Shown here one piece after another: positions 820 to 57,040 of a stretch of 64,000 bases of DNA. A model generated the notes under the pieces. The model saw only the letters and a program-made list of their open reading frames with translations, was not told the origin of the DNA and did not search any database. The position numbers and the translations under genes were made by a program. Positions within the stretch are counted from its first letter, which is position 1, and the number at the start of each line of letters is the position of its first letter. Origin of the DNA: a virus (lineage: Duplodnaviria; Heunggongvirae; Uroviricota; Caudoviricetes); IMG/VR virus record IMGVR_UViG_3300037189_028117, positions 18,977-82,976 of that record; one strand, given 5' to 3'.

Positions 820-1282
820 ATTGGTTTCAAAAGCTGCTTGTGTTTTAATTCAAAACAATCATCTTTATCTTGGAGTTTCAAGAAAAAACAATAAAAATGA
901 TTGGGGTTTGCCTGGTGGTAAATCTGAAGGGGAAGAAACTTTAAAATCTACAGCCGTTAGAGAATTATTTGAAGAAACTGGATTGATAATATCTGAAGAT
1001 AATTTAACCGAAATATTTTCCAGACAAGATGAAGAGTTTAATGTTGTTACATATTGTTTAAATATACCTTTTTCAAATTTAAATCAAGAACCAAAACAAT
1101 GCGAAGATGGATTAGTTAATTGGGTAACACAAGAAGATTTAATAGATGGTACATTTGGAATTTATAACAAATTATTATTTGAAAAAATATATAAACAAAG
1201 ACTTCATAATATGAAATCAAAATTTGGAGAAGATTATGTTAATAAGCAAATCTCAGAATATAGAATCGTCTACGAGGATTAA
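812..1282 (+). CDS. NUDIX hydrolase
   Basis: Nudix box 'GGKSEGEETLKSTAVRELFEETGL' (GX5EX7REUXEEXGU); start overlaps ligase stop. Confidence 0.8.
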   Translation: MSKLVSKAACVLIQNNHLYLGVSRKNNKNDWGLPGGKSEGEETLKSTAVRELFEETGLIISEDNLTEIFSRQDEEFNVVTYCLNIPFSNLNQEPKQCEDGLVNWVTQEDLIDGTFGIYNKLLFEKIYKQRLHNMKSKFGEDYVNKQISEYRIVYED

Positions 1283-1526
1283 AATAATATATGAAGGTTT
1301 ATCTTTCGTTTTTAATTCTGAAGATGAGTTAAGATTATGGGAAACAAAATTAAAATCAAATGATTTCTATATTGTTATAGAGGATGATGTTTGGGTTGAC
1401 TTAGAAGATATTGTAATTGAAAACACAATACCTTATAATGACAAACCTATTTGTCCTTATTGTAAAGTTGGACCTTCTTTGGAAGATGAAATTTGCCCCG
1501 TTTGCGAATCAAAAATAAATATATGA
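1224..1526 (+). CDS. hypothetical small protein with C-terminal zinc ribbon
   Basis: 'CPYCKV...CPVCESK' CxxC-x15-CxxC; start uncertain (overlaps Nudix 3' end). Confidence 0.35.
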   Translation: MEKIMLISKSQNIESSTRIKIIYEGLSFVFNSEDELRLWETKLKSNDFYIVIEDDVWVDLEDIVIENTIPYNDKPICPYCKVGPSLEDEICPVCESKINI

Positions 1527-2332
1527 TAAGTTTACAAGAAAGACAAGAGCATTATGAAGAATCTTATGATTATAAAATCATACCAAATCTTCCTATCGTG
1601 ATAAAATCTTCAATAAGAAATTTTGATGTTGTAACTAAAAATATCAAAAATCCTTATTCAAAAGAATTATATTCAATATTACAAAATTCACTTTTATATA
1701 CTGTAAAAGAAATTGATGGTGCGGTTTTCGCTTATGCTTATAATGGAGAATTTTCCATTGTAATAACAAATGATATTAATTCTAATAAAATATTTTGTAA
1801 AAACAAAATACAAGAAATAAGCTCTACCGTAAGTAGTTTACTTACATCTGCATTTAATAAATATTATTTTGCTTCAGATAACCCACCGGATATAATTGGT
1901 GATGTTATTTTTAAAACAAAATCATTTGCTTTGCCTTCTATAAATGAAACTGTTAATTATTTAATTTTAAAGCAAGGACAATGTAATTATCATAATATTT
2001 CTTATGTTTCATATTTTGAATTAATAAAGCATTTTTCAAAAGACAGAGTTAAAGAAATATTGGAATCAAAATCAACGGATGACAAGATAGATATAATAAA
2101 AGATTATTTAGATTTAGATATTTATGATAAATATGATCAGTTTTTCTTAAATGGATGGTCATGCTATAAGGCTCCACAAATAATCTCTAGTGGAGATCAA
2201 GAAATAACCAAAAAACGTTGGTTGTGTGATCTTGATTTTAATTATTTTGTTGACAATCGAGACGGATTGAGGCATATTCTGATGACCGGACAAGACGTAT
2301 TTGTTCCCGAAAGAGATATTATAAAAAAGTAA
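1493..2332 (+). CDS. Thg1-like (tRNA-His guanylyltransferase fold) protein, probably catalytically altered
   Basis: Colinear resemblance to Thg1 N-terminal half ('IVIKSSIRNF' vs 'VVVRLDGRNF'; 'AVFAYAYNGEFSIV' vs 'VIAYGQSDEYSFV'; 'QGQCNYHNISY' vs 'QADCHINNLYN') but metal-binding Asp positions are Ser/Gly; from memory, not searched. Confidence 0.4.
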   Translation: MPRLRIKNKYMISLQERQEHYEESYDYKIIPNLPIVIKSSIRNFDVVTKNIKNPYSKELYSILQNSLLYTVKEIDGAVFAYAYNGEFSIVITNDINSNKIFCKNKIQEISSTVSSLLTSAFNKYYFASDNPPDIIGDVIFKTKSFALPSINETVNYLILKQGQCNYHNISYVSYFELIKHFSKDRVKEILESKSTDDKIDIIKDYLDLDIYDKYDQFFLNGWSCYKAPQIISSGDQEITKKRWLCDLDFNYFVDNRDGLRHILMTGQDVFVPERDIIKK

Positions 2333-2336
2333 AACT

Positions 2337-2729
2337 ATGAAAAAACACAACTTAGATGTATGTTGGATTCAATATTCAGAAAAAGAATTAGAAGAGAATG
2401 CTAAATTATTCAGCCAAGCAGAGTGGAATTGGATTTCGAGCCGTCAGATTATATCTCAAAGATTTATTGAAAAATATTCAGATAAAATAGATTGGGGTTG
2501 GATTTCTGAACGTCAGAATTTATCTGAAGAATTTATGGAAAAACACCAAAATAAAATTAGTTGGTGTTATATTTCTCGATATCAAAAATTATCAGAAAAG
2601 TTTATAATAAAACATATAGATAAAATTGAGATTGATTGTTTAATTAATAATAGTTATATTTCTAGAAAATTAAAAAAACAAATAAAAAAAGAATATGAAC
2701 AATTAAAGTTATTGAAAGAAATTATATGA
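2337..2729 (+). CDS. 23-aa-repeat family protein (3 repeats)
   Basis: N-cap 'MKKHNLDV..YSEKELEEN', repeats 'ISxRQ.LSE.FIEKYSDKIDW', C-cap '..LKLLKEII'; ATGA overlap with next gene. Confidence 0.7.
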   Translation: MKKHNLDVCWIQYSEKELEENAKLFSQAEWNWISSRQIISQRFIEKYSDKIDWGWISERQNLSEEFMEKHQNKISWCYISRYQKLSEKFIIKHIDKIEIDCLINNSYISRKLKKQIKKEYEQLKLLKEII

Positions 2730-3046
2730 ATGACACTGATATTATTAATAAATATGTAAACTGGACAAGATTATCATGCGATGATTCTTTATCGGAAGAA
2801 TTTATCGAAAAATATCAAGATAAACTTAATTGGATGAACATATCTCAATATCAAAAATTATCAGAAAAATTTATTGAAAAACATTCAGATATAATTGATT
2901 GGGAACTTATTTCTGAATTTCAAGATTTATCCGAAGAATTTATAAAAAAACACTTAGATAAAATTGATATTTATTATTTAATGGACAATAGAAATATTCC
3001 AGAATATATTAAAAAAGAAATTGAAAATTTAAAAGAAATTATATGA
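2726..3046 (+). CDS. 23-aa-repeat family protein (3 repeats, divergent N-cap)
   Basis: 'LSEEFIEKYQDKLNW / LSEKFIEKHSDIIDW / LSEEFIKKHLDKIDI', ends 'NLKEII', ATGA junction. Confidence 0.7.
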   Translation: MNDTDIINKYVNWTRLSCDDSLSEEFIEKYQDKLNWMNISQYQKLSEKFIEKHSDIIDWELISEFQDLSEEFIKKHLDKIDIYYLMDNRNIPEYIKKEIENLKEII

Positions 3047-3352
3047 AAAAACATAATTTATTTTTAATATACAAGAAATACCCTGAAGAAGAATTAGAGG
3101 GAAATATTAACTTGTTTAATGAACAGGATTGGAATTATATTTCTTATTATCAAGATTTATCTGAAGATTTTATAGAGAAGCATTTAGATGAAGTTGATTG
3201 GGATAATATTTCTTTTAACCAAAAGTTATCAGAATCATTTATAAAAAAACATATTAATAAAATTAACTTTACTTTATTAATGAGAAATAAAAAAATTCTT
3301 TAAATTTGAAAGATAAAATTAAAAAAGAAATTGAATTATTGAAAGAAATTAT
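3043..3352 (+). pseudogene. 23-aa-repeat family member interrupted by a frameshift in an A7 run (ORF as called ends 3303; family C-cap '...KIKKEIELLKEII' continues in -1 frame to 3352)
   Basis: N-cap 'MKKHNLFLIYKKYPEEELEGNINLF', 2 repeats, stop after 'MRNKKIL'; downstream frame encodes 'NSLNLKDKIKKEIELLKEII*' with ATGA into next gene. Confidence 0.5.
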
Positions 3353-3790
3353 ATGAATCATAATTTAGATTTAGTAAACAAAACATATTCTGAAAAAACA
3401 TTAGAAAAATACATAGAATACTTTAATGATGAAGATTGGGAAGATATTTCTTATTGTCAAGATTTATCGGAATCATTTATTGAAAAATATTTTGATAAAG
3501 TTGATTGGTATTATATTTCTGGATATCAAATATTATCTGAAAAATTCATAGAAAAACATTTAGATAAACTTGATTGGGAATACATTTATAGCAACCAAAG
3601 GTTATCAGAATCTTTCATAGAAAGAAATTTGTATAAAGTTAATTGGATTGAAATATCTTGCTATCAAAAATTATCCGAAAAATTTGTTAAAAAACACTTA
3701 AATAAATTAGACGTTAAACAACTAATGTATAATGATAAAATTTCTAATAAAATAAAAAAAGAAATCTCAAAATTAATTGAAATCATATAG
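3353..3790 (+). CDS. 23-aa-repeat family protein (4 repeats)
   Basis: 'MNHNLDL..YSEKTLEKYIEYF', four 'xYQxLSExFIEKxxDKxxW' units, ends 'LIEII' (TAG stop). Confidence 0.7.
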   Translation: MNHNLDLVNKTYSEKTLEKYIEYFNDEDWEDISYCQDLSESFIEKYFDKVDWYYISGYQILSEKFIEKHLDKLDWEYIYSNQRLSESFIERNLYKVNWIEISCYQKLSEKFVKKHLNKLDVKQLMYNDKISNKIKKEISKLIEII

Positions 3791-3996: not shown

Positions 3997-5310
3997 ATGC
4001 TAACTGACGTACATACAATTAATCAATCTAAGTTTAAGGAACTTCTCAAGGTTCATATTCAATGTGAAGAAAATCTTCTCGTTATCGGTCCTTCTGGCGG
4101 TGGAAAAACCGTAATTGCAAAATCTGTTGCTGACCAACTTGGTTGCGACTTGGTTTATGTAAACCTTGCGGTCATGGAAAGAACTGACTTTCAGGGTTTC
4201 CCAGTATTAGCTGATGATAAGCAATCAGTTGATTATGCAACGCCAACCTTCCTTTGCTTTACGGATACCGCTGCTTCTCAAGAAATTTCAAAGCTTGAAC
4301 GTAACCGTTCTGCCCTTGATGAAAGCAAGGATAAGAAAGCAATTGCAGCTCTTGATGCTAGAATCAAGACTCTTAAGAATCAGGAAGAGGAGCAAAAGCT
4401 TATTAACCTCTACAATTCTGGAATTAGAACTCCAGACTTGGAAGCAAAGGTTAAGGCTGCTCTTGAAGAAAGAAAGAAGTCTCGTCCAATTGTTTTCCTT
4501 TTCGACGAAGTTGATAAGGCTGCAACGGAAACAAACCAGACTCTTCTTGAACTTCTTCAGTTCAAGTCTATCAACGGTCGTCCACTCAATGTAAAGGCTT
4601 GTATTCTTACAGCTAACTTACCAGATGAGCATGCTCATTCTAACCAAATCAGCCATGCAATTTCAAAGCGTTGTTCAACTTATCGTTTAGATATTGAATT
4701 TGATATTTGGCGTGACTGGGCATTTAAGAACGATGTTCACACCCATATTATTCAGTTCTTATCTTCGCATGATAAGCTTCTGTATCAGCCAGCACCAGAT
4801 GGTGACGCAACGGCTTATGCTCTTCCTTCTCCTCGTACATGGGTATCTGCAAGTGATAAACTTAAGACGCTCGATGCAATGAATGTTCCTGATAAGGATA
4901 GTCTTATGACTGCAATTATTGCTGGTAACGTTGGAGAAACAGCAGCGATTAAGTTTGCAAGTTGGTATGAACATTACCGTAAGTGGGACAGCGCAATTGA
5001 AGATCTTGTAGAAAAGGGTAAGGCCCCAGATTTATCAAAGGCTGGAGCACAAGAAGTTCTTATCGTTGCAATTGCAGCTTGTAGCAAGGTTTACACTGAG
5101 CTTAAGCCAAACAATGACGCTCGTATCAAGAAGGTTGTAAAGAATGTTTACAAGTGGCTTGGTACTCAATCAAAGGATGTTCAACACGGAGCTATCCGAA
5201 TTTCATTCGGTGGAGATTTCCATACTGCATACCAATATGGTTTCTCTAAGATTGAGGAATCAATGAATATCTTCAATGATCTAAAGAAGGATTTCGAAAA
5301 GTACAAGTAA
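3997..5310 (+). CDS. MoxR-like AAA+ ATPase
   Basis: Walker A 'VIGPSGGGKTV', Walker B 'IVFLFDEVDKA'; strong RBS; gene pair with downstream VWA protein; locally higher GC than surroundings. Confidence 0.8.
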   Translation: MLTDVHTINQSKFKELLKVHIQCEENLLVIGPSGGGKTVIAKSVADQLGCDLVYVNLAVMERTDFQGFPVLADDKQSVDYATPTFLCFTDTAASQEISKLERNRSALDESKDKKAIAALDARIKTLKNQEEEQKLINLYNSGIRTPDLEAKVKAALEERKKSRPIVFLFDEVDKAATETNQTLLELLQFKSINGRPLNVKACILTANLPDEHAHSNQISHAISKRCSTYRLDIEFDIWRDWAFKNDVHTHIIQFLSSHDKLLYQPAPDGDATAYALPSPRTWVSASDKLKTLDAMNVPDKDSLMTAIIAGNVGETAAIKFASWYEHYRKWDSAIEDLVEKGKAPDLSKAGAQEVLIVAIAACSKVYTELKPNNDARIKKVVKNVYKWLGTQSKDVQHGAIRISFGGDFHTAYQYGFSKIEESMNIFNDLKKDFEKYK

Positions 5311-5326
5311 TTTTCGAAAAAACACA

Positions 5327-5349
5327 GGGGGTAGGTTTTTCCTACCCCC
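5327..5349 (+). other. GC-rich hairpin between MoxR and VWA genes (no U-tract)
   Basis: 'gggggtagg-ttttt-cctaccccc' 9-bp stem; flanked by two copies of palindrome TTTTCGAAAA. Confidence 0.45.
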
Positions 5350-5384: not shown

Positions 5385-6836
5385 ATGGCAAATCTTCTCA
5401 ATGACCCAAAGAACATCGCTTCAGATGATTTCGAAGAACTTAATGAAAAACTAAAAATTGCGCAAATGTTAATTTCGCGCTCACCTGATAAGAAAGGTTT
5501 TCCTTTCGTATATTGTTTTACTGCTCAGAAAGAGCATGTTTTGGAAGAAATTAAAATTCCAATTTTTACAGACGAAAATGGTAATGAAGAATATTTTTAT
5601 ACCGCAGCTACTGACGGTAAGAAATATTATTGGTCACCTCAATTAATTCGTGAAATGACCCCGAGAGCATTAGCTATCATTATGGCTCATGAAACTTACC
5701 ATGTTGTTTTGCAACATTGTATTCCTGCAAGAACCGGAGGAAAATTAAATTCAATCTGGAATATTGCAGTAGATTACGTTGTTAACGGAATGATTGAACA
5801 TGACGTTCGTCAAAGTTGGCCAGGAATGAATACAAATGAAAATTTCCGAGGAAAGGAACATCCTCTTTGGAAAGAAAAGCTTGGAAAGCCTCTTTATTTT
5901 GATGAACTTCTTGACTCCATCAAAGAGCAAACTAAGAAAAAGAAAGCTGAAAGAGCTGCTTCTAAAAATGGAAAAGCTCAGAAGCCACCTAAAGCTCAAA
6001 AGAAAAAGACTCCACCATCAAAAGATGATTTAAGGTTTTATGCCGATTATTCTTTGTATGGTAAATCTGCCGAAGAGATTTATGACCAAATCATCAAGGC
6101 TATGGAAGATCTTACCAATGAAGAAATGCAAGAAGCTCTTGAAGGCATGGGTATATCTATGGACGAACATATGGAACATGGTTTGTCAAAGGGTCAATTG
6201 TTTAAAGAAATCCTCGATGCTGCAAGAAATGCAAAAAAGCTTGCTGGAACCGTACCTGGATCAATTGAAGATCAAATTCTAAAGCTTCAAGAACCAAAAC
6301 TATCTGCTTTTGATATTATCAGAAATGTTATTAGCAAAAGAAGAGATGAAAAAGGTAGAATCAATGATTGGTCAAGATTTAAGAGAAGAGGATTATCTCT
6401 CGGTCTTTATCAACCAAAGAAAAAGGATGATTACATTCGTTGGTGCGCATTCCTAGATACGTCTGGGTCTATGAGTCAAGATGACCTTACATATGCCGTA
6501 AGTCAGCTAAAATGTTTGGATGGTCGTTCGGAAGGGATTGTTATTCCTAATGATGCCCAACCTTACTGGGATAAAGCAACTGACATTAAAAGAGTTGGTG
6601 ACTTACAAAGAACAAAGATTGTTGGTCGTGGCGGAACGGTATTCAAGCAAATCTTTGATGAATTTCCTAAGAAAATGAAAAAGCCAATTGATGTATTAAT
6701 TATTCTAACCGACGGTGGAATTTTTGATATGCCAGAATTAAAGAGACCAAATGTTAAGGTTGTTTGGATTTTAACAAACGATATGAAGGGATTTAACCCA
6801 CCTTTCGGTGAAGTTGCTCCCCTCAGAACATACTAA
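5385..6836 (+). CDS. VWA-domain protein with N-terminal zincin-like (HEXXH) domain, MoxR partner
   Basis: 'MAHETYHVVLQH' HEXXH; MIDAS 'FLDTSGSMS'; classic AAA(MoxR)+VWA operon; RBS 'aagagg'. Confidence 0.75.
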   Translation: MANLLNDPKNIASDDFEELNEKLKIAQMLISRSPDKKGFPFVYCFTAQKEHVLEEIKIPIFTDENGNEEYFYTAATDGKKYYWSPQLIREMTPRALAIIMAHETYHVVLQHCIPARTGGKLNSIWNIAVDYVVNGMIEHDVRQSWPGMNTNENFRGKEHPLWKEKLGKPLYFDELLDSIKEQTKKKKAERAASKNGKAQKPPKAQKKKTPPSKDDLRFYADYSLYGKSAEEIYDQIIKAMEDLTNEEMQEALEGMGISMDEHMEHGLSKGQLFKEILDAARNAKKLAGTVPGSIEDQILKLQEPKLSAFDIIRNVISKRRDEKGRINDWSRFKRRGLSLGLYQPKKKDDYIRWCAFLDTSGSMSQDDLTYAVSQLKCLDGRSEGIVIPNDAQPYWDKATDIKRVGDLQRTKIVGRGGTVFKQIFDEFPKKMKKPIDVLIILTDGGIFDMPELKRPNVKVVWILTNDMKGFNPPFGEVAPLRTY

Positions 6837-6851: not shown

Positions 6852-7082
6852 ATGTATGCGATTGATGTGTATTTAAACAGTGGTAAAAAGGTAGAAGCTC
6901 TTCTTTGGAGTTGGAAACCAAAAGAAGGATATTTTGAAGCTTTAGTTGAATCAACTGGAGCAATAAAGAAATATCAATTAAGAGAAGTTAGAGGAGGTAA
7001 ATTCTATTCGGATAGAATCCGTGAAGTATCTACCTCGGAAGATTTCCTTGAAAAAGCAAAAAGAGATGGTTTCGAAGGTTAA
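6852..7082 (+). CDS. hypothetical protein (76 aa)
   Basis: ORF with AT-biased codon use consistent with neighbours; no recognisable motif. Confidence 0.35.
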   Translation: MYAIDVYLNSGKKVEALLWSWKPKEGYFEALVESTGAIKKYQLREVRGGKFYSDRIREVSTSEDFLEKAKRDGFEG

Positions 7083-7305: not shown

Positions 7306-7692
7306 ATGCTTATGGGGCATAATTTGAAGTTAAAAACACAAAAATATTCTGAAAAAGAATTGGAAAATGATATTAATTTATTTGATGAACAGGATTGGGT
7401 TTATATTTTTAAATATCAAAATCTATCTGAATGGTTTATTGAAAAACACTATGATAAAATTGATTGGAGTGAGATTTCTTGGTCCAAAAAATTATCTGAA
7501 GAATTTATTGAAAAATATTCAGATAAAGTTGATTGGTATTATATTTCTGGATATCAAAAATTATCTGAAAAATTTATAAAAAAACATATAGATAAAATTG
7601 ATATTGATTGGTTAATGGAAAATAACAAAATTTCTGAAAAATTAAAAAATAAAATTAAAAAAGAAATTAATTTATTGAAAGAAATTATATGA
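7306..7692 (+). CDS. 23-aa-repeat family protein (3 repeats)
   Basis: 'KYSEKELENDINLFDEQDW', repeats, 'INLLKEII', ATGA junction. Confidence 0.7.
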   Translation: MLMGHNLKLKTQKYSEKELENDINLFDEQDWVYIFKYQNLSEWFIEKHYDKIDWSEISWSKKLSEEFIEKYSDKVDWYYISGYQKLSEKFIKKHIDKIDIDWLMENNKISEKLKNKIKKEINLLKEII

Positions 7693-8060
7693 AAAGACAT
7701 AATTTAGATTTAGGTAGAATAAAATATTCTGAAAAAGAATTAGAAAAAAATATTAAATTATTTGATTCAATTGATTGGTATAATATTTCTAAAAATCAAA
7801 AATTATCTGAAGAATTTATAGATAAATATTCAAAGATAGTTAGCTGGAGAGATATTTCTTGTTGTCAATATTTATCAGAAGAATTTATGGAAAAACACCA
7901 AAATAAAATTAGTTGGTGTTATATTTCTTGCTGCCAAAAATTATCTGAAAAATTTATAACAAAACATATAGATAAAATTGATTTTGAAGGGTTAATGGAA
8001 AATAAATATATTTCTCATAAAATTAAAGAAGAAATTAAAATATTGAAAGAAATTATATGA
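7689..8060 (+). CDS. 23-aa-repeat family protein (3 repeats)
   Basis: 'MKRHNLDL..KYSEKELEKNIKLF', Cys-containing repeat variants 'CCQYLSEEFMEKHQNKISW', 'KILKEII'. Confidence 0.7.
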   Translation: MKRHNLDLGRIKYSEKELEKNIKLFDSIDWYNISKNQKLSEEFIDKYSKIVSWRDISCCQYLSEEFMEKHQNKISWCYISCCQKLSEKFITKHIDKIDFEGLMENKYISHKIKEEIKILKEII

Positions 8061-8356
8061 AACATAATTTAGATTTAAGTAATACAAAATATTCAGAAGA
8101 AACGTTAGAAAAATATATTAATTCATTTTCTGGATGGGATTGGTATTATATTTCTTACTGTCAAGTTTTATCTGAAAAGTTTATAGAAAAACATTCGGAT
8201 AAATTAAATTGGTATGAAATTTCTTTTTATCAAAAATTATCCGAAGAATTTATGAAAAAACATATTGATAAAATTGATATTGGTTGTTTAACGGAGAACA
8301 AAAATATTTCTGAAAAAATCAAACAAGAAATTCAAACTTTGAAAGAAATAATTTAA
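8057..8356 (+). CDS. 23-aa-repeat family protein (2 repeats)
   Basis: 'MKHNLDLSNTKYSEETLEKYINSF', 'IQTLKEII'. Confidence 0.7.
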   Translation: MKHNLDLSNTKYSEETLEKYINSFSGWDWYYISYCQVLSEKFIEKHSDKLNWYEISFYQKLSEEFMKKHIDKIDIGCLTENKNISEKIKQEIQTLKEII

Positions 8357-8930: not shown

Positions 8931-9650
8931 ATGAATATAATAAATGTTCCAAAAGGAACTCAAATACTCTTTGTTGGAGATATACACGAACACGATGATC
9001 AATTCTTTTCTTTAATGGAAAATTGGAAACCTTCTCTTGAAAGATGGGTCGTATCCCTGGGAGACGTGTGCGACAAGGGCAAGGGAGATGGAGCTTTCGA
9101 AAAGGTGTCTCATTTTTTGCAGGACGGCCACAGGCAGGGATGGGCAAGAGCAATCAAGGGAAACCACGAGCTGAAGCGTCTAAAAAATAGAAGACACAAT
9201 CTGAAAGATTATGACTTGTGGTGGAAAGAAAGACAAATTTCACTTTCATTTCAATTTTACAATTCAAATATTATAACTTGTGTTCATGCAGGAATTCCAC
9301 CCAAACTATCAAGCGATGATTTGAAAAAAAATCTTGATGTTTGTTATGTCAGAGACGTTGACGACCAAGGAATCATTCCATTAATTTGGAAACATGATGA
9401 AATAAATCCAAAGTTGGTCAAGGCTCGCGAAGGTGGGATTTCTTGGCATGAAATTTATGATGGACGTTTTGGTTATGTTATTTCCGGACATAATGCTCAA
9501 ACAGATGGCATTCCAAAGTTTTTTAATTATTCCTGCAATATAGATACAGGAGTATATGAAACTGGAATTTTAACTGGTCAAATTATTGATGAAAATGGAA
9601 AACTAGGAGAAACCTTACAAATTAAAGGTGAAGTTTTTAGAAGTAAATAA
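8931..9650 (+). CDS. calcineurin-like metallophosphoesterase (PPP family)
   Basis: 'LFVGDIHEHDD', 'SLGDVCDKG', 'GNHE' metallophosphatase motifs; contains a GC3-rich patch 9048-9182. Confidence 0.75.
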   Translation: MNIINVPKGTQILFVGDIHEHDDQFFSLMENWKPSLERWVVSLGDVCDKGKGDGAFEKVSHFLQDGHRQGWARAIKGNHELKRLKNRRHNLKDYDLWWKERQISLSFQFYNSNIITCVHAGIPPKLSSDDLKKNLDVCYVRDVDDQGIIPLIWKHDEINPKLVKAREGGISWHEIYDGRFGYVISGHNAQTDGIPKFFNYSCNIDTGVYETGILTGQIIDENGKLGETLQIKGEVFRSK

Positions 9651-9842: not shown

Positions 9843-10199
9843 ATGGAAGATAAGTTAAATTTACCAGAATTAAATCCAAATTTATTCTCTTATTTAGAAG
9901 AAATAAAATTTAACAATCCAGTTAAATTAACAAATCAAGAAGAATTGCTTTTTAAATTAAAAGCTCACATTGATTTGCCTATGAATTTAATAGTCTTCAT
10001 TATAGAAGAATTTTTAAATGAAGCAAAATCGGCACTTATAATAGGAGATTCGATTGACATGAGGCCGATAGGTATGCTATACACGGACAAAGACTCTGAG
10101 ATTTCAAGGTTGGTCAAGTTAAAAAGACATAAAAATTTAAAACGTAGAATTATATATGGAAAAAAACATAAATATGAACATTTCAGAAGTTCCAAGTGA
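9843..10199 (+). CDS. hypothetical protein (118 aa)
   Basis: first ORF after promoter/operator region. Confidence 0.45.
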   Translation: MEDKLNLPELNPNLFSYLEEIKFNNPVKLTNQEELLFKLKAHIDLPMNLIVFIIEEFLNEAKSALIIGDSIDMRPIGMLYTDKDSEISRLVKLKRHKNLKRRIIYGKKHKYEHFRSSK

Positions 10200-11001: not shown

Positions 11002-11351
11002 AATATATTGTTGTTTCAATTTTTATACCCGAATCTGGAGATAAATCTATTTATATTGCAACAAAAATTAATAGTAAAGAATTAATTGAAGAACCAATAT
11101 TTGATTGGGAAAACCTTGAATTTATAAAACAAATCTTTAATATAAAATTGATAATTAAAAATAATAAAGTAGATATAAATGAATTTATTAAAATTCATAA
11201 TTTCATCTTTTTAGAAGAAGATTTGTGCAGAATCTGTAACAAAACAAGAATATTTATTCCTTTAAAAGATTCATTTTCTTCAATTGAAGATTTTGAATCA
11301 TATGTTAAAAATGAAATTGATAAATTTGAATTATTTAAGGAAATTATATGA
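10998..11351 (+). CDS. hypothetical protein ending 'LFKEII', ATGA-coupled
   Basis: as above. Confidence 0.45.
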   Translation: MKYIVVSIFIPESGDKSIYIATKINSKELIEEPIFDWENLEFIKQIFNIKLIIKNNKVDINEFIKIHNFIFLEEDLCRICNKTRIFIPLKDSFSSIEDFESYVKNEIDKFELFKEII

Positions 11352-11938
11352 ATAAAGATAAACTATTTTTAAAAACTAAAAGGTATCCACAAAAAGAATT
11401 AGAAAAATATATTAATCTTTTTAATTCAAAAGATTGGAATAACATTTCTAAATATCAATATTTGTCAGAAAAATTTATTGAAAAACATTCAGATAAAATT
11501 AATTGGAAATTAATTTCTGCTCATCAAACTTTATCCGAAAAATTTATAGAAAAACATTACAATAAAGTTGATTGGGTTTATATTTCTCGTTGTCAAAAAT
11601 TAACAGAATTTCTTATAGAAAAACATTCAAATAAAATATCTTGGGGTTTTATTTCTTATTATCAAACTTTATCAGAATCATTTATTGAAAAATATCAGGA
11701 TAAACTTCATTGGTATTGGATTTCTTGGGCCCAAAGTTTATCTGAAGATTTTATTGAAAAACATTCAGATAAAATCTATTGGGATTGTATATCTCGATAT
11801 CAAAACTTATCTAAAGAATTTATAAAAAAACACGTTAATAAAATTAATTTTTATTATTTAAAATATAATAAAAACATTTCGAAAGAATTAAGATTAAAAA
11901 TTAAAAAAGAAATTGAATTATTGAAAGAAATTATATGA
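11348..11938 (+). CDS. 23-aa-repeat family protein (6 repeats)
   Basis: six consecutive 'SxYQxLSExFIEKHSDKIxWxxI' units; 'IELLKEII'. Confidence 0.75.
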   Translation: MNKDKLFLKTKRYPQKELEKYINLFNSKDWNNISKYQYLSEKFIEKHSDKINWKLISAHQTLSEKFIEKHYNKVDWVYISRCQKLTEFLIEKHSNKISWGFISYYQTLSESFIEKYQDKLHWYWISWAQSLSEDFIEKHSDKIYWDCISRYQNLSKEFIKKHVNKINFYYLKYNKNISKELRLKIKKEIELLKEII

Positions 11939-12144: not shown

Positions 12145-12329
12145 CTAACATTTTAAAAATATCAAAGTTTTTAATAAAAGAAAATATAAAATTTTTCACA
12201 ATAGGATATAAAGAAAATTATTTTGTTGTTTTCTATATATTCGGAAATAGAGATGAAAACTCAATTTTTGAGTTTGAAGATATTAAGTATAAATTTAGAA
12301 AGGTTAATTACCCACATTATGAAAATTGA
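12141..12329 (+). CDS. hypothetical small protein
   Basis: ATGA overlap (ATGAAAATTGA) with RNA ligase start. Confidence 0.35.
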   Translation: MTNILKISKFLIKENIKFFTIGYKENYFVVFYIFGNRDENSIFEFEDIKYKFRKVNYPHYEN

Positions 12330-13398
12330 TATATCAAAATACAACCTTGAAGATTTCAGAATATTAGAGACTAATATTGCTGGAGAAAAGTGTTATTTAA
12401 TTAATCCAAATCATATAAACACAAAATGGACAAAAGAAAATTTAATTTTCCGTTCATCTATGTGGAATTCGAATTGGGAATCAATATCTCTTTCGTTCAA
12501 AAAGTTTTTTAATTGGGAAGAACAAACAGAGATGATACCAAAGCCTAATTCATTAAAAGAAGCGAAGTGCATTGAAAAAATTGATGGTTCTACTCTAATT
12601 ATTTCAAAATACAAGGGTGAATTAATTATTCGCACAAGAGGAACTACTTCCGCTTATAATTTAGAAAATGGTAATGAAATTGATTTTCTAAAACAAAAAT
12701 ATCCAAATTGTTTTAATTTTACAAATGAAAATCAAACTTATATTTATGAATGGGTTTCTCCTGTAAATAAAATTGTAATAAATTATGGTAATGATCCTGA
12801 TATTTATTTAACTGCCGTTATCAATCATTCGGATTATAGCATGGTTAAACAATCTGAATTAGATAAAATTGCTTTAACTTTGGGTGTTAAAAGACCAAAG
12901 GTATTTTCTTTTAAATCAATTGATGACATGGTATACTTGATTGATAACTTAAAAGGTCAAGAGGGTATCTGTGTTTATTTTAAAAACGAACAAGAAATAA
13001 AAAAAGTAAAATCTGCTTGGTATCTAACTTTGCATAGGATGAAAACTGAACTTGGTTCCTTTGAAAGGGTTGTAGATTTATATTTTGTAATAAATAAGCC
13101 GGATTATAATACATACTACCAATATGTAGTTGATAATTTTGATTATGAGCTTGCAGAATCTTGTAAATCTCATATTTCAAGAATATGTGATGGAATGAAG
13201 GAAGTTAACAAAATAGTGAAAGCGATGAAAGAAAAAGCTGATGAAGTAAGAGGCTTGACAAGAAAGGAAGCTGCCGCTATAATTCTTTCTGATTACGGAG
13301 TTACAAACCGTTCTGGAATGGTATTTTCTTTATTAGATAATAAACCTTTACAGGATAAAGATTATAAAAGATTATTATTTCAAGTAACCAAAATGTAA
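12319..13398 (+). CDS. RNA ligase, T4 Rnl1-like
   Basis: motif I 'EKIDGSTLIISKYKGELIIRTRG' (T4 Rnl1 '[23 protein letters not shown]'); 'YEWVSPVNKIVINY', 'KVKSAWYLTLH' colinear with Rnl1; start taken at 'MKIDISKY'. Confidence 0.75.
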   Translation: MKIDISKYNLEDFRILETNIAGEKCYLINPNHINTKWTKENLIFRSSMWNSNWESISLSFKKFFNWEEQTEMIPKPNSLKEAKCIEKIDGSTLIISKYKGELIIRTRGTTSAYNLENGNEIDFLKQKYPNCFNFTNENQTYIYEWVSPVNKIVINYGNDPDIYLTAVINHSDYSMVKQSELDKIALTLGVKRPKVFSFKSIDDMVYLIDNLKGQEGICVYFKNEQEIKKVKSAWYLTLHRMKTELGSFERVVDLYFVINKPDYNTYYQYVVDNFDYELAESCKSHISRICDGMKEVNKIVKAMKEKADEVRGLTRKEAAAIILSDYGVTNRSGMVFSLLDNKPLQDKDYKRLLFQVTKM

Positions 13399-14491: not shown

Positions 14492-14976
14492 TTCATAAAA
14501 ATTTAAAAAAAGAATTAATAAAGACAATATTTGGAACAATGGGGATAAGTTTCCCGCCAAATTTTGGTTTATCTGGAATTTCTACAAATGATTATATAAA
14601 CGATTATATTTCAATTACATATGAAGATTCCGATTTGTATAAATATCCAATTTATTGTGGAGAGACTTATGAATCAAAGTTAAGATTAAGGTTTATGTTT
14701 ATTGATTTATTTGATGAAAAAAATAAATTTCATGAATTTTATGGAATATATGTTTTGGATGATGGTTTAAAAAATTATAAGTTAATAAAATTAACATCTG
14801 ACGAAGATTTCAATTATTTATCATTTGACTCAAATAAATGGAGAGAATTTTCTTTGTTTGAAATGTTAAATTCATGTTCTACATTTGTAAGGATGATGGA
14901 TATTGGTTATACATGGAAGCCATGTAAAGAATTTGATGATCTAAAAGATAAACTTTTAGAATTCTTGGATAATTAA
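14488..14976 (+). CDS. hypothetical protein (162 aa)
   Basis: ORF. Confidence 0.4.
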   Translation: MIHKNLKKELIKTIFGTMGISFPPNFGLSGISTNDYINDYISITYEDSDLYKYPIYCGETYESKLRLRFMFIDLFDEKNKFHEFYGIYVLDDGLKNYKLIKLTSDEDFNYLSFDSNKWREFSLFEMLNSCSTFVRMMDIGYTWKPCKEFDDLKDKLLEFLDN

Positions 14977-14989
14977 AGAAAGGGTTGAT

Positions 14990-15484
14990 ATGGAAGAAAA
15001 AATTGATTTTTGCGAAAAATTTGTTTCAGATTGTATTAAATCAGGAATAACAAAACCTAATGATATTTGTGATTTAGCTCTCAAAAAGATAGAAGAGATA
15101 GATTTAGAAATAGAAAAAGCTAAAATTCTAAGATTGGAGAGAGATAAGTATCAATCTGTTTTGAGAAACTTTAATCATAAATCTATAAAAACAAGAGGTA
15201 GAAAACAAAATCCAACAATTGTCAATTTTGATGCTGATTCTGATATGGAAGAGTATGAAACTCTCATTGTTGATATTATTACACAATTTACTGATGTTAA
15301 TAATATGACCGTGGTTGACTTGGCCGGCCGAGTGGGGTATGGTGCTGGGACTGACCCCACCCCTTTATATACGGCGTTGAAGTGGCTTCAAGCTAAAAAT
15401 ATACTCTTTAGAGAGGTGGATAGGTCACTTTCTCGTGGCAGTAATTGGGATAATAGATTTAATTTTATAAAGAAAGAAGGCTGA
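14990..15484 (+). CDS. hypothetical protein (164 aa)
   Basis: RBS 'aaagggttgat'; contains GC3-rich patch 15306-15395. Confidence 0.45.
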   Translation: MEEKIDFCEKFVSDCIKSGITKPNDICDLALKKIEEIDLEIEKAKILRLERDKYQSVLRNFNHKSIKTRGRKQNPTIVNFDADSDMEEYETLIVDIITQFTDVNNMTVVDLAGRVGYGAGTDPTPLYTALKWLQAKNILFREVDRSLSRGSNWDNRFNFIKKEG

Positions 15485-15486
15485 TT

Positions 15487-16155
15487 ATGCGTTTTAAACA
15501 AGAAGATTTTTTTAACAATTTGGATTCTTTTCTTGAAGAAGTAAAGGTTAAAGAGAGTAAGAAAAAGAAAAAAACCTACAAAGGTACAATTAATGGTTTT
15601 GTAGGTAATTACGATTTTCTTTCAAATTTATTTTGTAGACCACAAACATCAATAATTTATTTTAATACCGTAAATGAAAAAGGTCAAGAAATGTTGACTT
15701 CAGTTATGGAAACTGCACCAACTCTAGAGCATCTATTTCAGATGTCTAAAACAATCAATCGTGAACAACAATTAAAGATTAAAGAAGCTCATACACCACT
15801 TCAAGCAAGAAGGTTAGGTTCAAAAGTGGATTTAATTAGTAATTGGGATGAGAAAAGGGTTCCAGTAATGAAGTCATTATTGGAGGATAAATTTTCTCAA
15901 CACTTTGATTTGAGATTAAAGCTTCTTGTAACTAATGGTTTTAAACTTGTAAATGAATCTCCATTAAACGAACCATTTTGGGCAACAAAAAATGGAAATG
16001 GAGAAAATATGTTGGGAAAACTTTTAGAAGAAGTTAGGAGTAGAATAATTAGAGATAGTGGTTCTCCAAAAGAAATTTTGCAAGCTTATTTGTCAAGGGA
16101 TGGTCTTGGTTTTATTTGCGATTGGTTTGAGGAAAATAAAATGAAAATTGTATGA
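15487..16155 (+). CDS. NADAR (YbiA-like, DUF1768) domain protein
   Basis: 'GNYDFLSNLF', 'EHLFQ', 'ARRLGSK', 'LKLLVTNGFKLVNESPLNEPFWATKNGNGENMLGKLLEEVRSRI' match the NADAR signature (LSNF...EHYFQ...ARK.GR...L.TG...L.E.S..D..WG.G.G.N.LG..LM..R). Confidence 0.7.
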   Translation: MRFKQEDFFNNLDSFLEEVKVKESKKKKKTYKGTINGFVGNYDFLSNLFCRPQTSIIYFNTVNEKGQEMLTSVMETAPTLEHLFQMSKTINREQQLKIKEAHTPLQARRLGSKVDLISNWDEKRVPVMKSLLEDKFSQHFDLRLKLLVTNGFKLVNESPLNEPFWATKNGNGENMLGKLLEEVRSRIIRDSGSPKEILQAYLSRDGLGFICDWFEENKMKIV

Positions 16156-16598
16156 AACATAATTTACATTTACAATCTAAAAAATATTCTGAAAAAGAAT
16201 TGGAAGATAATATTGGTTTATTTGATGAATATGATTGGCATGCAATTTGTTATGCACAGATTTTATCTGAAAAATTTATAGAAAAACACTCAGATAAAAT
16301 TAACTGGAATATTATAAGTTATTGCCAATTTTTATCCGAAAGGTTTATAGAAAAACATTGGAATAAAGTTGATTGGAAAACCATTGCAATTAAACAAGAA
16401 TTATCCGAAAAATTTATTGAAAAACACATGCTTCATATGGATAAAATTACTTGGAATTTTATTTCTAGATACCAAAAGCTATCAGAAGAATTCATTAAAA
16501 AACATATAAATAAACTTGAATTAAATAATTTATTTAATAATAAAAAAGTTTCAGAAGAAACCAAAAATGAAATAAAATTATTAAAAGAAGTTATATGA
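16152..16598 (+). CDS. 23-aa-repeat family protein (4 repeats)
   Basis: 'MKHNLHLQSKKYSEKELEDNIGLFDEYDW', 'EIKLLKEVI'. Confidence 0.7.
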   Translation: MKHNLHLQSKKYSEKELEDNIGLFDEYDWHAICYAQILSEKFIEKHSDKINWNIISYCQFLSERFIEKHWNKVDWKTIAIKQELSEKFIEKHMLHMDKITWNFISRYQKLSEEFIKKHINKLELNNLFNNKKVSEETKNEIKLLKEVI

Positions 16599-16893
16599 AA
16601 AGATACAATTTAAATATAATTAAATATAGTGAAAATTATTTACAACATAATTTTCATTCATTTGATTCAGTTGATTGGAGTTTAATATCTTCTTATCAGG
16701 TTTTATCGGAAGAATTTATTGAAAAAAAATTCACATAAAGTTAGTTGGAATGATATTTCTGCTAGTCAAAAATTGTCAGAAAAATTTATCAAAAAACATT
16801 TTAAATTACTTGATATAGATAGTTTGCTTTTAAATAAAAATATAAGTAAGAAAACAAAAGGGAAAATTCTATTATTAAAAGAAATAATATAAT
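16598..16893 (+). pseudogene. 23-aa-repeat family member split by frameshift in an A8 run (~16733)
   Basis: 'MKRYNLNIIKYSENYLQHNFHSFDSVDWSLISSYQVLSEEFIEKKFT*' then other frame 'KFTHKVSWNDISASQKLSEKFIKKHFKLLDIDSLLLNKNISKKTKGKILLLKEII*'. Confidence 0.55.
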
Positions 16894-17072
16894 GTACTCT
16901 ATACTATGTGAACTACTTTCACCTAAAAGTGAAGTCTTCCTATCTTTATTGAATAAAAAATATGATTTTTTGATTCAATAATCAAGGCTTTATATTCGGG
17001 CAGTTCCTGCCCTATTAACTTTATATTTTTTGTTGCATTGATATCCTTGTCATTAAGATATAGAATATATTG

Positions 17073-17102
17073 TTGACAAAACCTCACAAAAAGTAATATA
17101 AC
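17073..17102 (+). promoter_or_regulatory. candidate promoter TTGACA-18-TATAAC in 350-bp non-coding region with several hairpins
   Basis: -35 17073-17078; region 16894-17260 lacks ATG-initiated ORFs, has inverted repeats (tattgaat..attcaata; gggcag-ttc-ctgccc; cccttgcc-taaa-ggcaaggg). Confidence 0.35.
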
Positions 17103-17425
17103 AATAGGTACGAAAAATGTAAAAGAAAATTGTAAAAATTGTCAATTCATCCCTTGCCTAAAGGCAAGGGTCTTCTTGACTTTTTATATAAAAACGTTGA
17201 TGGGAAAAGAAAATATGTATCTTATCTTAAAGATTTTGATTTGTGGCCTTCATATGTAGGTGTCATGTTTACTGAAGATATAAATGATTCATATATTTTT
17301 GAAGCAGAAATGTTAAATTTTACATATATGGTAATTGATAATTATGATGATATAATTGAAGTCAAATTTAACACAAAAAAAGAACTGGATGATTTTATAA
17401 CTTTAGAAAATATTATTTAAAAATT

Positions 17426-17749
17426 ATGAAATATATCATATTAAATGCCAATATTAAATCTGATACAGTATATTTAGAGAAATGTAACTTTTTTCCAAAA
17501 AAAGTTTTTATTTCATCATTATTCTTATCAAATAATTGCTTACTATCCAAGTTAGATGTAGAAAGTTTATATAATGCATTATATAGGGTTGCAGGCGTAC
17601 GTTCGCACATGTATTCAAAAAATGGAATTACATATGTTAATTCAATGACTAAAAAAGTAACATATTCTTTTATTGTTTTTAAAGGAAAAAATATAAAAAC
17701 AATAAAAAATAATATAAAAAATTATCTTTTATTAAAGGATATTTTATGA
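17426..17749 (+). CDS. hypothetical protein ending 'LLKDIL'
   Basis: ATGA-coupled ORF. Confidence 0.4.
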   Translation: MKYIILNANIKSDTVYLEKCNFFPKKVFISSLFLSNNCLLSKLDVESLYNALYRVAGVRSHMYSKNGITYVNSMTKKVTYSFIVFKGKNIKTIKNNIKNYLLLKDIL

Positions 17750-18159
17750 AAAAATTTGATTTTTATAACAAAAAATATAAACAGAAATATATTGAAAAAA
17801 GATTATTATATCTTTCAAAAGAGGATTTCTACCCTCTTTTCTATTATCAAGGACTTAAACCAAGTTTTTTTATAGAAAATAAAGATTACTTATTATCTGT
17901 GGTAGATAAGAATTTTTTTTATAGTGGTTTGCTTAGATCTGGTGAATCCGAATTAATACCAGAAACTTTTCTAAATGAAAATTGGAAAGATATATTAGAA
18001 TATACACCTATAGCAAGTAGGTCTCTTATTATTCTTGATGAAGATTTTTTTATGAATCATATTCATGATTTTGATATGTACAATATATTAAAGTATAATT
18101 TTTCTATTTCAGAAAAAACAAAGAATGATATAAAAGATATTATTGAAATAATATGTTAA
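17746..18159 (+). CDS. degenerate repeat-family-like protein
   Basis: 'KKYKQKYIEKRLLYLSKEDFYPLFYYQGLKPSFFIENKDY', C-term 'ISEKTKNDIKDIIEII'. Confidence 0.45.
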   Translation: MKKFDFYNKKYKQKYIEKRLLYLSKEDFYPLFYYQGLKPSFFIENKDYLLSVVDKNFFYSGLLRSGESELIPETFLNENWKDILEYTPIASRSLIILDEDFFMNHIHDFDMYNILKYNFSISEKTKNDIKDIIEIIC

Positions 18160-26465: not shown

Positions 26466-26728
26466 AATTTTCAGATTTTGTTGAAGATGGCAAAGAACAT
26501 TTTATTTTATATAAATTTGATGGAATTGGATATGATTTTTTACACTCCTATTATAAATTAAGTAATATAATCATTAAGACCGGTTCTTACATGAATATTG
26601 AAGAGGCTTATATAGATTTGCCATATAATGATGGGGAATTGAAAGATTATAAAAAAATATTCTTTAAATCAAAGAAAGAACTAATTGACGAGTTTAATAA
26701 TTTAAAAATATTAAAAGAAATTATATGA
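26462..26728 (+). CDS. hypothetical protein ending 'LKILKEII'
   Basis: shared junction/C-tail, no repeats. Confidence 0.4.
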   Translation: MKFSDFVEDGKEHFILYKFDGIGYDFLHSYYKLSNIIIKTGSYMNIEEAYIDLPYNDGELKDYKKIFFKSKKELIDEFNNLKILKEII

Positions 26729-27258
26729 AAAAGCAAAAAGTTAAAAAAATTTTATCAAAAGAGCAAGAAGAGAATATATTAAATATTCTCTCAAATAATT
26801 TTTCAAATGGAGATCATTTTGATTTCTCTTTTAATTTTAAAAATTACAATTATTCAGAAGAGTTTATAGAAAAAGCTATTCCTTATTTAGACTCGAAAAC
26901 ACTAGGAAGTATTATTACTAATGATAATTGCAAGTATATATTTTTGTTATCTGAAAATTCTATTAAAAAAATTTTAAAATACAAATATGTTTGTTTACAG
27001 TTTTCATACTATGCAAATAGAATATTTAAAAAAAGACTCTTCTCTGAAGATTTTTTGCAAAGTTATATAAACAAATTTACTCGTAAGAATAGTTATTATT
27101 TTTCAAATAATATTTCTTTAATTTCTATATATCAAAATATGTCTGAAGATTTTATTATTAAAAATATAAAAATTTTAAATGTTGAATTCTTGATAAGAAA
27201 CAAAAATATAACAAAAGATGTAAAAAATAAAATTATTTCATTAAGAGAAATTATATGA
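26725..27258 (+). CDS. degenerate repeat-family-like protein (177 aa)
   Basis: 'NMSEDFIIKNIKILNVEFLIRNKNITKDVKNKIISLREII'. Confidence 0.5.
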   Translation: MKKQKVKKILSKEQEENILNILSNNFSNGDHFDFSFNFKNYNYSEEFIEKAIPYLDSKTLGSIITNDNCKYIFLLSENSIKKILKYKYVCLQFSYYANRIFKKRLFSEDFLQSYINKFTRKNSYYFSNNISLISIYQNMSEDFIIKNIKILNVEFLIRNKNITKDVKNKIISLREII

Positions 27259-27776: not shown

Positions 27777-28156
27777 AAAAACATAATTTAGATTTATTAA
27801 GTAAAATATATTCCGAAGAAGAATTGGAAGAAAACATTATGTTATTTAAAAAACTTGATTGGCATACAATTTGTTATGCGCAGGTTTTGTCTGAAAATTT
27901 TATTGAAAAATACTCTGATAAAATTTATTGGGAATTGATTTCTGAATGTCAAAATTTATCCGAAGAATTTATTGAAAAACATTCAGATAAAGTTGACTGG
28001 GATTATATTGCTATAGAGCAAGTTTTATCAGAAAAATTTATAAGAAAACATATAGATAAAATTGATATTAATTATTTAATGGAAAACTATCATATAGATG
28101 AGAATGTAAAATCTAAAATTAAATTAGAAGTCGATTTATTAAAAGAAATTATATAA
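27773..28156 (+). CDS. 23-aa-repeat family protein (3 repeats)
   Basis: canonical caps, 'VDLLKEII'. Confidence 0.7.
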   Translation: MKKHNLDLLSKIYSEEELEENIMLFKKLDWHTICYAQVLSENFIEKYSDKIYWELISECQNLSEEFIEKHSDKVDWDYIAIEQVLSEKFIRKHIDKIDINYLMENYHIDENVKSKIKLEVDLLKEII

Positions 28157-32998: not shown

Positions 32999-33001
32999 GA
33001 T

Positions 33002-56998: not shown

Positions 56999-57002
56999 AT
57001 TA

Positions 57003-57030: not shown

Positions 57031-57040
57031 AAATAAACGC

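Follow-up and report, generated by a model that had tools for sequence, protein, structure and literature searches.

The stretch of DNA analyzed here (the window) comprises 64 kb, positions 18,977 to 82,976, of IMG/VR virus record IMGVR_UViG_3300037189_028117; its parent contig in public data measures 171,650 bp. The window has a GC content of 27%, carries almost all of its genes on the + strand, and shows the gene content of a typical large phage, with a DnaE-type polymerase, a topoisomerase, an FtsK-like ATPase, and an SbcC-like protein, together with an ATP-dependent DNA ligase, a NUDIX protein, an Rnl1-type RNA ligase, and a calcineurin-like phosphoesterase. Judged by DnaE, no cultured phage lies close by (best identity ~30% or less). 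The subject of this work is a gene near the beginning of the window that encodes a degenerate Thg1-like protein, referred to as pTLP. Thg1 and the Thg1-like proteins (TLPs) are “reverse” (3'-5') RNA polymerases that normally repair tRNA 5' ends. pTLP retains the complete fold of the family without its two metal-binding aspartates and appears to be a pseudoenzyme. The gene, the parts of its product, and the open reading frame (ORF) directly upstream are as follows:

1523..2332, + strand: degenerate Thg1-like protein gene (pTLP), 269 amino acids plus stop, recognized from the ORF list and from Pfam, PDB, and fold matches
1604..1624, + strand: motif K28-S-S30-I31-R-N-F34, where canonical TLPs have R-x-D-G-[KR]-x-F
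1739..1756, + strand: motif Y-N74-G75-E76-F-S, where canonical TLPs have Q-S-D-E-[IY]-S
2153..2230, + strand: long beta-hairpin G211-D236 with K216, K230, K231, R232, and W233, the counterpart of the tRNA-elbow-binding TLP hairpin
2276..2317, + strand: C-terminal extension I252-L-M-T-G256-Q-D258-V-F-V-P-E-R-D265, characteristic of the phage TLP subfamily to which the degenerate clade belongs
1224..1526, + strand: small upstream ORF with a C-terminal CxxC...CxxC zinc-ribbon-like motif, whose stop overlaps the start of pTLP

An earlier note on this DNA had placed the ORF at 1493-2332. The frame is real and lies on the + strand, but 1493 is merely the upstream TTG at which the longest open frame begins, in the same frame as an ATG at 1523. 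On account of an ATGA overlap with the stop of the upstream ORF, identity to the database protein P0001, and the register of the Bacillus thuringiensis TLP (BtTLP), the true start is almost certainly ATG 1523, and residue numbering from this codon coincides with that of BtTLP. The upstream ORF itself matches Pfam Zn_ribbon_3 weakly (E=0.016) and is not conserved upstream of pTLP in relatives. A promoter scan was uninformative (57 found vs 52.7 expected).

That pTLP is a bona fide Thg1-like protein is beyond reasonable doubt. It matches Pfam PF04446 (Thg1) with E=2.6e-12 and 47.2 bits (cut-off 29.2), PHROG 4717 (“tRNA-His guanylyltransferase”) with E=2.9e-23, and, as a single sequence, the BtTLP chain 4kgk_A in the PDB with E=1e-13; a profile of its clade matches the same chain with E=2.7e-27 over residues 3-252. 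An AlphaFold2 model built on 45 homologs reached a predicted local distance difference test (pLDDT) score of 95.2 and a predicted template modeling score of 0.90. When the model was compared with the PDB by Foldseek, all 32 significant matches were Thg1/TLP structures, the top one being 4kgm_C (E=4.9e-17, template modeling score 0.89, root-mean-square deviation 2.5 Å), and the palm plus fingers fold of the model superimposes on the solved Thg1/TLP structures. The sequence, model, and structure comparisons therefore agree on a Thg1/TLP fold colinear with the palm region, as had been proposed from the letters of the sequence, and the suggested homology check against Thg1 structures of the 3OTB type has in effect been made by way of the profile, AlphaFold2, and Foldseek results. 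The core and helices of pTLP are well conserved, and the structural residues kept include Y11, P24, P44, Y71, N94, Q97, S101, S105, F111, F130, F135, P138, E142, Q151, and G211.

The active site presents a different picture. In HMMER pairwise alignments, “KSSIRNF” of pTLP aligns with “RIDGAHF” of BtTLP (4kgk) and “RLDGRNF” of human THG1 (3otb), so that the metal ligand D30 is replaced by Ser (TCA, 1610-1612) and the turn residue Gly31 by Ile. Likewise, “YNGEFS” aligns with “QSDEIS” of BtTLP and “QSDEYS” of human THG1, which places Gly (GGA, 1745-1747) at the metal ligand D75 and Asn at S74; the third carboxylate, E76, is retained. The loss of both metal-binding aspartates (D30S and D75G) thus bears out the earlier note, which nevertheless understated the damage: further conserved positions have changed (K9E, R28K, G31I, K43N, D46S, S74N, K98E, D131K, R133K, R150K, D153Q, and N157H), in columns that are 70-100% conserved among canonical TLPs, here 42 catalytically intact family representatives.

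The roles of several of these residues have been established for BtTLP. In that enzyme, D30 and D75 ligate two Mg2+ ions, E76 packs against R28, and the transfer-site triphosphate is bound by R28, K99', and R131; in a D75A mutant, activity was dramatically decreased (PMC3701042). The activation step has been assigned to the equivalents of ScThg1 K44, S75, and N161, which correspond to K43, S74, and N158 in BtTLP, and the transfer step to those of R27, K96, and R133 (PMC3701042). All six residues assigned to activation or transfer by kinetics and structure are replaced in pTLP, which carries N43, N74, and H157 at the activation positions and K28, E98, and K133 at the transfer positions. Where a functional 3'-5' RNA polymerase presents three carboxylates, pTLP presents S30, G75, and E76, and the columns of the activation and transfer residues by which a functional TLP is recognized are variable across its clade.

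Conserved aspartates elsewhere in the alignment had been named as the observation that would speak against a pseudoenzyme, and none were found: D36 and other nearby Asp residues lack conservation in the clade, and wherever the clade does conserve an acidic column, 29-100% of the subfamily members with intact catalytic residues are acidic there as well. Compensating carboxylates elsewhere in pTLP were rejected at the sequence level, as no clade-conserved acidic column appears to have arisen as a replacement.

The extent of the degenerate state became visible only through an exhaustive search. A word-indexed protein search, with a single sequence or a 45-sequence profile, gave 3-4 proteins; an exhaustive HMMER search over 1.8 billion cluster representatives revealed the family, with 1,289 matches, 61 of them below 1e-30. 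Among the 131 full-length sequences of the top 150, the triad reads D/D/E in 42 and is degenerate in 89. In a neighbor-joining tree, a BtTLP-like group is canonical throughout, a second canonical group includes the uncultured protein P0002, and several large groups are degenerate. The degenerate groups read NDE/NDQ, DDK/NDK, and others at the triad, and most of their triphosphate-binding residues are lost too. The sampled contexts of other degenerate TLPs (loci L014, L022, and L024) look phage-like and lack the pair of downstream genes described below. Source annotations still name the degenerate members tRNA(His) guanylyltransferase.

pTLP itself sits in a monophyletic group of ten representatives in this tree, and the degenerate state is ancestral to the whole clade. 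Asp30 is replaced in all ten members (Ser in five, Glu in two, Lys in two, and Asn in one), D75 is lost in nine (Gly in seven, Ser in two), and position 31 is Ile or Val in every one. E76 is kept in 7/10 and E12 in 8/10; the proteins P0003, L008, and L009 are also without E76. The broad alignment A1 was too diverse for deriving patterns, and the clade-specific invariant residues were taken from alignment A2; they include K28, I31, N33, D119, G126, K216, W233, I252, G256, and D258. The remaining pocket positions (9, 43, 74, 98, 131, 133, 150, 153, and 157) vary freely within the clade. The TLPs of the sampled cultured phages (Vibrio, Stenotrophomonas, Pectobacterium, and Aeromonas) are all canonical, as are the uncultured P0002 and a protein of the jumbo phage L007, both of which carry the pTLP-type C-terminal “KW...GQDxFxPERD” extension. 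BtTLP-like and cultured-phage TLPs do not have this extension, whose residues I252, G256, and D258 are invariant in A2. Since the extension is common to the canonical P0002 and L007 proteins and to pTLP, the degenerate clade originated within a phage TLP subfamily that carries it and in which some members are still intact. When loci were scanned with the clade profile, the matches were one viral locus, which is catalytically intact, two metagenome loci, and no genome loci, and a pattern scan of 185,579 species genomes found no member of the clade.

pTLP is kept under strong purifying selection. Between L008 and L009, both of which read N30/G75/N76 and have thus lost all three carboxylates, 32 synonymous and 6 nonsynonymous changes were counted, giving a ratio of nonsynonymous to synonymous substitution rates (dN/dS) of 0.044; for L001 vs L008 the ratio is ~0.1, with dS saturated. 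Although the lineages have only 36-49% identity to one another, their pTLP ORFs of 254-274 codons have stayed intact, and a random 269-codon frame would stay open at this base composition with p ~2e-12.

Among the parts that pTLP retains is the long beta-hairpin, whose strands (212-223 and 226-236, assigned by DSSP on the AlphaFold2 model) have pLDDT values above 90. At positions K216, K/R230, K231, and K/R232, 90-100% of clade members have a basic residue, vs 17-83% of canonical TLPs, and W233 is invariant in the clade. In the complex of the Methanosarcina TLP (MaTLP) with tRNA, the hairpin binds the tRNA elbow by contacting the phosphates of U55 and G57, its deletion almost abolishes tRNA binding, and the sole fully conserved residue of the TLP hairpin is an Arg (PMC4820378). 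These comparisons suggest that an RNA-binding surface was kept and strengthened while the catalytic pocket was abandoned.

Downstream of pTLP lie two genes that recur with it:

3997..5310, + strand: MoxR-type AAA+ ATPase, with Walker A GPSGGGKT at 4087-4110 and Walker B VFLFDE at 4492-4509
5385..6836, + strand: DUF2201 protein, with an HExxH metallopeptidase-like domain (HETYH, 5688-5702) and a VWA domain whose metal ion-dependent adhesion site (MIDAS) reads DTSGS (6456-6470)

The ATPase matches Pfam AAA, AAA_5, and, weakly and below the cut-off, bpMoxR, as well as PHROG 1297; its placement in the MoxR clade is tentative, given the weakness of these matches. In the DUF2201 protein, which matches Pfam DUF2201_N (E=7.7e-14) and DUF2201 (E=7.4e-10), the metallopeptidase-like domain is N-terminal and the VWA domain C-terminal. 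The HExxH and DxSxS MIDAS motifs are invariant in four DUF2201 orthologs, and the Walker A and B motifs of the ATPase are intact; as in MoxR-VWA partnerships, an AAA+ gene with Walker motifs adjoins a VWA gene with a MIDAS. Seven clade lineages were sampled (the window, L001/2, L008/9, L017, L018/19, L020, and L021), with pTLPs 36-49% identical to the query, and in 7/7 the next substantial gene after pTLP is the orthologous ATPase. The DUF2201 gene follows the ATPase in 5/5 loci with a long enough contig. Outside the clade, the pair was found in 0/9 TLP loci within the flanks examined, some of which are short, and the difference in ATPase linkage between clade and non-clade loci gives a Fisher p=8.7e-5, uncorrected for phylogeny. 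pTLP is thus the first gene of a conserved block consisting of pTLP, the MoxR-type AAA ATPase, and the HExxH and VWA (DUF2201) protein; further downstream, the block also holds a metallophosphoesterase and an Rnl1-type RNA ligase. ATPase orthologs are 45-51% and DUF2201 orthologs 47-56% identical, so that pTLP (36-49%) is less conserved than its neighbors (45-56%). The upstream neighbors of pTLP differ by lineage and comprise a NUDIX gene plus the zinc-ribbon ORF, a GNAT gene, a DNA ligase, a DUF815-type AAA gene, and a PARG-like protein.

No characterized or solved relative of either partner was found in the library, PDB, and literature searches. A PDB sequence search gave no match for the DUF2201 protein and only Walker-A-level matches for the ATPase, and the defense and NCBIfam libraries gave none for pTLP or DUF2201 and only P-loop-level matches for the ATPase. 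Distant DUF2201 homologs occur in Vibrio, Pseudoalteromonas, and Acinetobacter phages of ~75-80 kb and in Salicola phage SCTP-2. phrog_1314, which the DUF2201 protein matches, and several RefSeq phage records carry the label “HNH endonuclease”; because the sequence combines a metallopeptidase-like HExxH motif with a VWA/MIDAS domain, this label is probably a propagated mis-annotation.

Several further observations concern this gene pair. A perfect 9-bp GC-rich hairpin, GGGGGTAGG-TTTTT-CCTACCCCC, lies at 5327-5349, right after the ATPase stop and before the DUF2201 start. The position of the stem-loop is conserved in 4/5 lineages (the window; L001, ~10135-10177; L018, ~12286-12313; L021, ~3439-3468), and in L018, L021, and L001 it is followed by T-runs. 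The stem-loop could set the ratio of ATPase to VWA protein by acting as a terminator or attenuator. In the phage that encodes P0003 (L001), a second, divergent AAA-DUF2201 pair at 14587-18087 directly follows the Rnl1-type RNA ligase, such that the dead TLP and Rnl1 each precede an AAA-DUF2201 pair. The GC content is 0.40 in the ATPase gene, 0.36 in DUF2201, 0.34 in orf6852 (6852-7082), and 0.36 in the metallophosphoesterase gene (8931-9650), vs 0.27 in the window and 0.26 in pTLP; the much higher GC content of these four genes could stem from strong amino-acid constraint or from an independent, possibly horizontal, origin.

The remaining features of the window that bear on the neighborhood are the following:

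2337..3790, + strand: four tandem small repeat-protein genes between pTLP and the AAA gene
2325-3787, 7306-8353, 11339-11935, 16140-16889, and 26701-28153, + strand: repeat-family clusters, given as hidden Markov model (HMM) matches
29297-30266, 32978-34054, 56999-57382, and 61266-63462, + strand: the rest of the repeat-family clusters, given as HMM matches
10-819: ATP-dependent DNA ligase, PF01068 plus OB domain, cut by the window edge (364 amino acids in L006)
8931-9650: calcineurin-like phosphoesterase (metallophosphoesterase)
12223-13398: Rnl1-type RNA ligase, Pfam E=3.9e-14, below the NCBIfam equivalog cut-off

The four-gene repeat insertion is specific to this phage, relatives having 0-1 small ORFs at the same place. 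Its genes belong to an expanded family of small proteins (~80-195 amino acids) with “LSE[EK]FIEKH..KIDW..IS” repeats, which gave 29 HMM matches in 64 kb; the genes frequently form tandem arrays in which start and stop codons overlap, and PHROG 3532, a family without known function, matches them best in the libraries. The RNA ligase that had been described as adjacent to pTLP is in fact a DNA ligase (10-819), the Rnl1-type RNA ligase lying 10 kb downstream. With regard to the T4-type RNA repair set (Pnkp plus Rnl1), the window carries an Rnl1-type ligase domain and a calcineurin-like phosphoesterase, and no kinase was identified. L018 has the block of orf6852, metallophosphoesterase, and Rnl1 as well, and L001 has part of it. 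Two genes upstream of pTLP, the NUDIX hydrolase (812-1282) matches the PADLOC candidate defense family PDC-S07 (E=2.8e-12) and is not conserved beside pTLP in relatives. At 31091-32932, a 613-amino acid protein contains an SPFH/Band-7 domain (Pfam E=1e-11), a domain for which a scaffolding role in RNA repair has been proposed.

From the perspective of function, the combination of a Thg1/TLP fold, the loss of both metal-binding aspartates, the lack of a replacement Asp, and purifying selection (dN/dS 0.04-0.1) makes “pseudoenzyme” the best and a well-supported reading of the pTLP sequence, in line with what the earlier note had suggested: it is an enzyme-family homolog without essential catalytic residues that has been retained under purifying selection. 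On balance, we lean toward the view that pTLP, with its full TLP fold and without the capacity for two-metal-ion 3'-5' transfer, is kept for a non-catalytic job as an RNA-binding subunit, probably together with its neighbors. It would bind RNA, most likely tRNA or a tRNA-like elbow, via the conserved and extra-basic beta-hairpin, and would act as a binding or recognition subunit during infection, probably with the adjacent ATPase/VWA-metallopeptidase pair. The narrower proposal of a tRNA-binding decoy or regulator is hypothetical, the argument for RNA binding being the conservation of the basic hairpin.

Several points weigh against this interpretation. The loss of activity is a prediction from residues, and E76, E12, the invariant K28, and the mostly conserved R32 remain, so that some phosphate or nucleotide binding is possible. 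In MaTLP, the tRNA 5' end is held by residues of the R136/N137 region (“FDxR” motif), which the clade does not conserve; tRNA, if bound at all, would be bound differently. Neither the window nor 10 related loci contain tRNA genes. In addition, the linkage of pTLP, AAA, and DUF2201 is seen within one related phage group that shares more downstream synteny (orf6852, metallophosphoesterase, and Rnl1) and may be no more than a gene order passed down by descent, without a physical or functional partnership. The stem-loop stands between the AAA and DUF2201 genes.

The retained polar residues also lend themselves to another explanation, which we regard as unlikely, namely that pTLP is still an enzyme with non-canonical chemistry, in which the E76/E12/K28/R32/N33 set or a single metal catalyzes another reaction, for example, metal-independent transfer or the hydrolysis or modification of an RNA 5' end. 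The frequencies of E76 and E12 in the clade, the invariance of K28 and N33 in A2, and the general conservation of R32 indicate that the former active-site loop may be under a constraint of its own, and strong purifying selection is compatible with any function. However, the characterized palm-domain nucleotidyltransferases of the superfamily all need two aspartates, and the D75A substitution dramatically decreased the activity of BtTLP (PMC3701042). The remaining pocket residues, moreover, drift within the clade, unlike those of a conserved alternative active site, and E76 has been lost as well in P0003, L008, and L009.

A comparably low probability is assigned to the idea that pTLP is an inactive subunit that hetero-oligomerizes with an active TLP, from the host or a second phage copy, and thereby poisons or retargets that enzyme. 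The architecture of the family would allow it: the active site and tRNA binding of TLPs span a dimer interface, to which the neighboring monomer contributes K99' and R16' while molecule B binds the elbow; the core and helices of pTLP are well conserved; and heterodimeric cyclases with one degenerate site offer an analogy. Yet no second TLP was found in the 64-kb window (of a ~172-kb genome) or in 25 related loci, most bacteria lack a TLP, the pattern scan placed no clade member in any of the 185,579 species genomes, and the strict linkage to AAA and DUF2201 would be left unexplained.

Still less probable is a nucleotide-binding sensor or sponge, whose dead palm pocket would take up a nucleotide or signaling molecule and not turn it over. 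There is precedent among related palm-fold cyclases, as degenerate GGDEF domains bind c-di-GMP or GTP; GGDEF and Cas10 structures appear in the weak tail of the Foldseek matches, and T38 and the backbone-donating residues 33-34 are retained in pTLP. Against these points, no positive evidence was obtained, the conserved bulky Ile or Val in place of Gly31 sits next to the former metal site and would plug the pocket, and the base- or phosphate-contacting residues K43, D46, S74, and N157 are variable in the clade. Finally, a decaying, functionless relic or pseudogene, to which the many lost catalytic residues and the lower conservation of pTLP relative to its neighbors might point, was rejected as highly implausible in view of the dN/dS values of 0.044 and ~0.1, the frames kept open in a 27% GC genome, the new clade-specific invariant residues, and the very confident fold prediction.

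Within the preferred reading of pTLP as a non-catalytic RNA-binding subunit, a bolder version can be formulated, which we offer as a speculation with the odds clearly against it. The dead TLP would be the RNA-recognition subunit of an undescribed three-part phage machine comprising pTLP, the MoxR-type AAA+ ATPase, and the HExxH/VWA protein, and the NDE/NDQ/DDK/NDK clades would form an unrecognized non-catalytic radiation. In such a machine, the basic hairpin would dock on tRNA or a tRNA-like RNA, and the ATPase and metallopeptidase would be directed to tRNA-bound host factors, e.g., anticodon nucleases or other tRNA-targeting defense proteins; alternatively, it might remodel tRNA-protein complexes. 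If true, it would represent a new type of counter-defense or host-takeover module built around a pseudo-polymerase, and two thirds of the nearest TLP relatives would constitute a large unrecognized non-catalytic radiation, apparently in phage-like genomes.

Pseudoenzymes are common in large enzyme families. The Thg1/TLP members characterized in the literature searched are nevertheless all active 3'-5' polymerases, and neither an inactive member nor TLP biology specific to phages was found described there. The present findings are of interest mainly because the degenerate radiation is large, selection is strong, and pTLP is strictly linked to an ATPase/VWA-metallopeptidase pair: a whole, selectively maintained TLP branch gave up the two-metal center and kept the fold and an RNA-binding-type hairpin. 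It suggests that large uncultured phage-like genomes recruited a reverse-polymerase scaffold for non-catalytic RNA recognition, possibly in a tRNA-centered arms race with the host. As the degenerate branch is locked to an uncharacterized gene pair, it provides a testable entry to phage DUF2201/MoxR function, and it flags the systematic mis-annotation of degenerate members as “tRNA(His) guanylyltransferase”.

Among known systems, BtTLP (4KGK/4KGM), a bacterial 3'-5' polymerase for tRNA 5'-end repair, is the best match of pTLP in both sequence and structure. The two proteins are colinear over ~250 residues with near-identical numbering and have in common the palm core, the helices, E12, E76, Q151, and G211. 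They differ in the Ser and Gly of pTLP at D30 and D75, the Ile at Gly31, and the replaced equivalents of R28, K43, S74, K99, R131, and N158; the hairpin of pTLP is also ~4 residues longer and more basic, and pTLP carries the extra C-terminal “GQDxFxPERD” extension. The Methanosarcina acetivorans TLP (5AXK-5AXN, TLP-tRNA complex) has the same fold (Foldseek E ~1e-10 to 1e-11) and a flexible elbow-binding beta-hairpin with a conserved basic residue, and the hairpin and basic residues are kept in pTLP, whereas the 5'-end-holding residues and the catalytic center are not; binding of a 5'-truncated tRNA in the catalytic register is therefore not expected.

The “tRNA-His guanylyltransferase” genes of cultured phages (Vibrio 1.170.O, Stenotrophomonas RAS14, Pectobacterium CBB, Aeromonas 2L372D, Xanthomonas XacN1, and others), together with P0002 and L007, belong to the same family and likewise occur in large phage genomes, and P0002 and L007 further share the C-terminal extension and a “PPxIxG” loop with pTLP. 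In contrast to pTLP, those that were aligned keep the canonical set (RxDG, SDE, K98, FDxR, and RQxD..N), and no AAA/DUF2201 pair adjoins them within the flanks examined.

Outside the family, inactive GGDEF domains and the degenerate site of heterodimeric class III cyclases are carboxylate-less palm folds retained as binding or regulatory modules. The likeness is an analogy in the way they work, with weak structural similarity only (Foldseek ranks 33-49); they belong to another family without a detectable sequence relation and bind nucleotides, whereas pTLP retains an RNA-binding-type hairpin. For the neighboring pair, the MoxR AAA+/VWA systems (RavA-ViaA, CbbQ-CbbO, and the MoxR-vWA ternary conflict systems) likewise place a MoxR-like AAA+ gene beside a MIDAS-intact VWA gene; in the present case, however, the VWA protein has an HExxH domain (DUF2201_N), the pair is encoded by a phage, and a dead TLP stands ahead of it.

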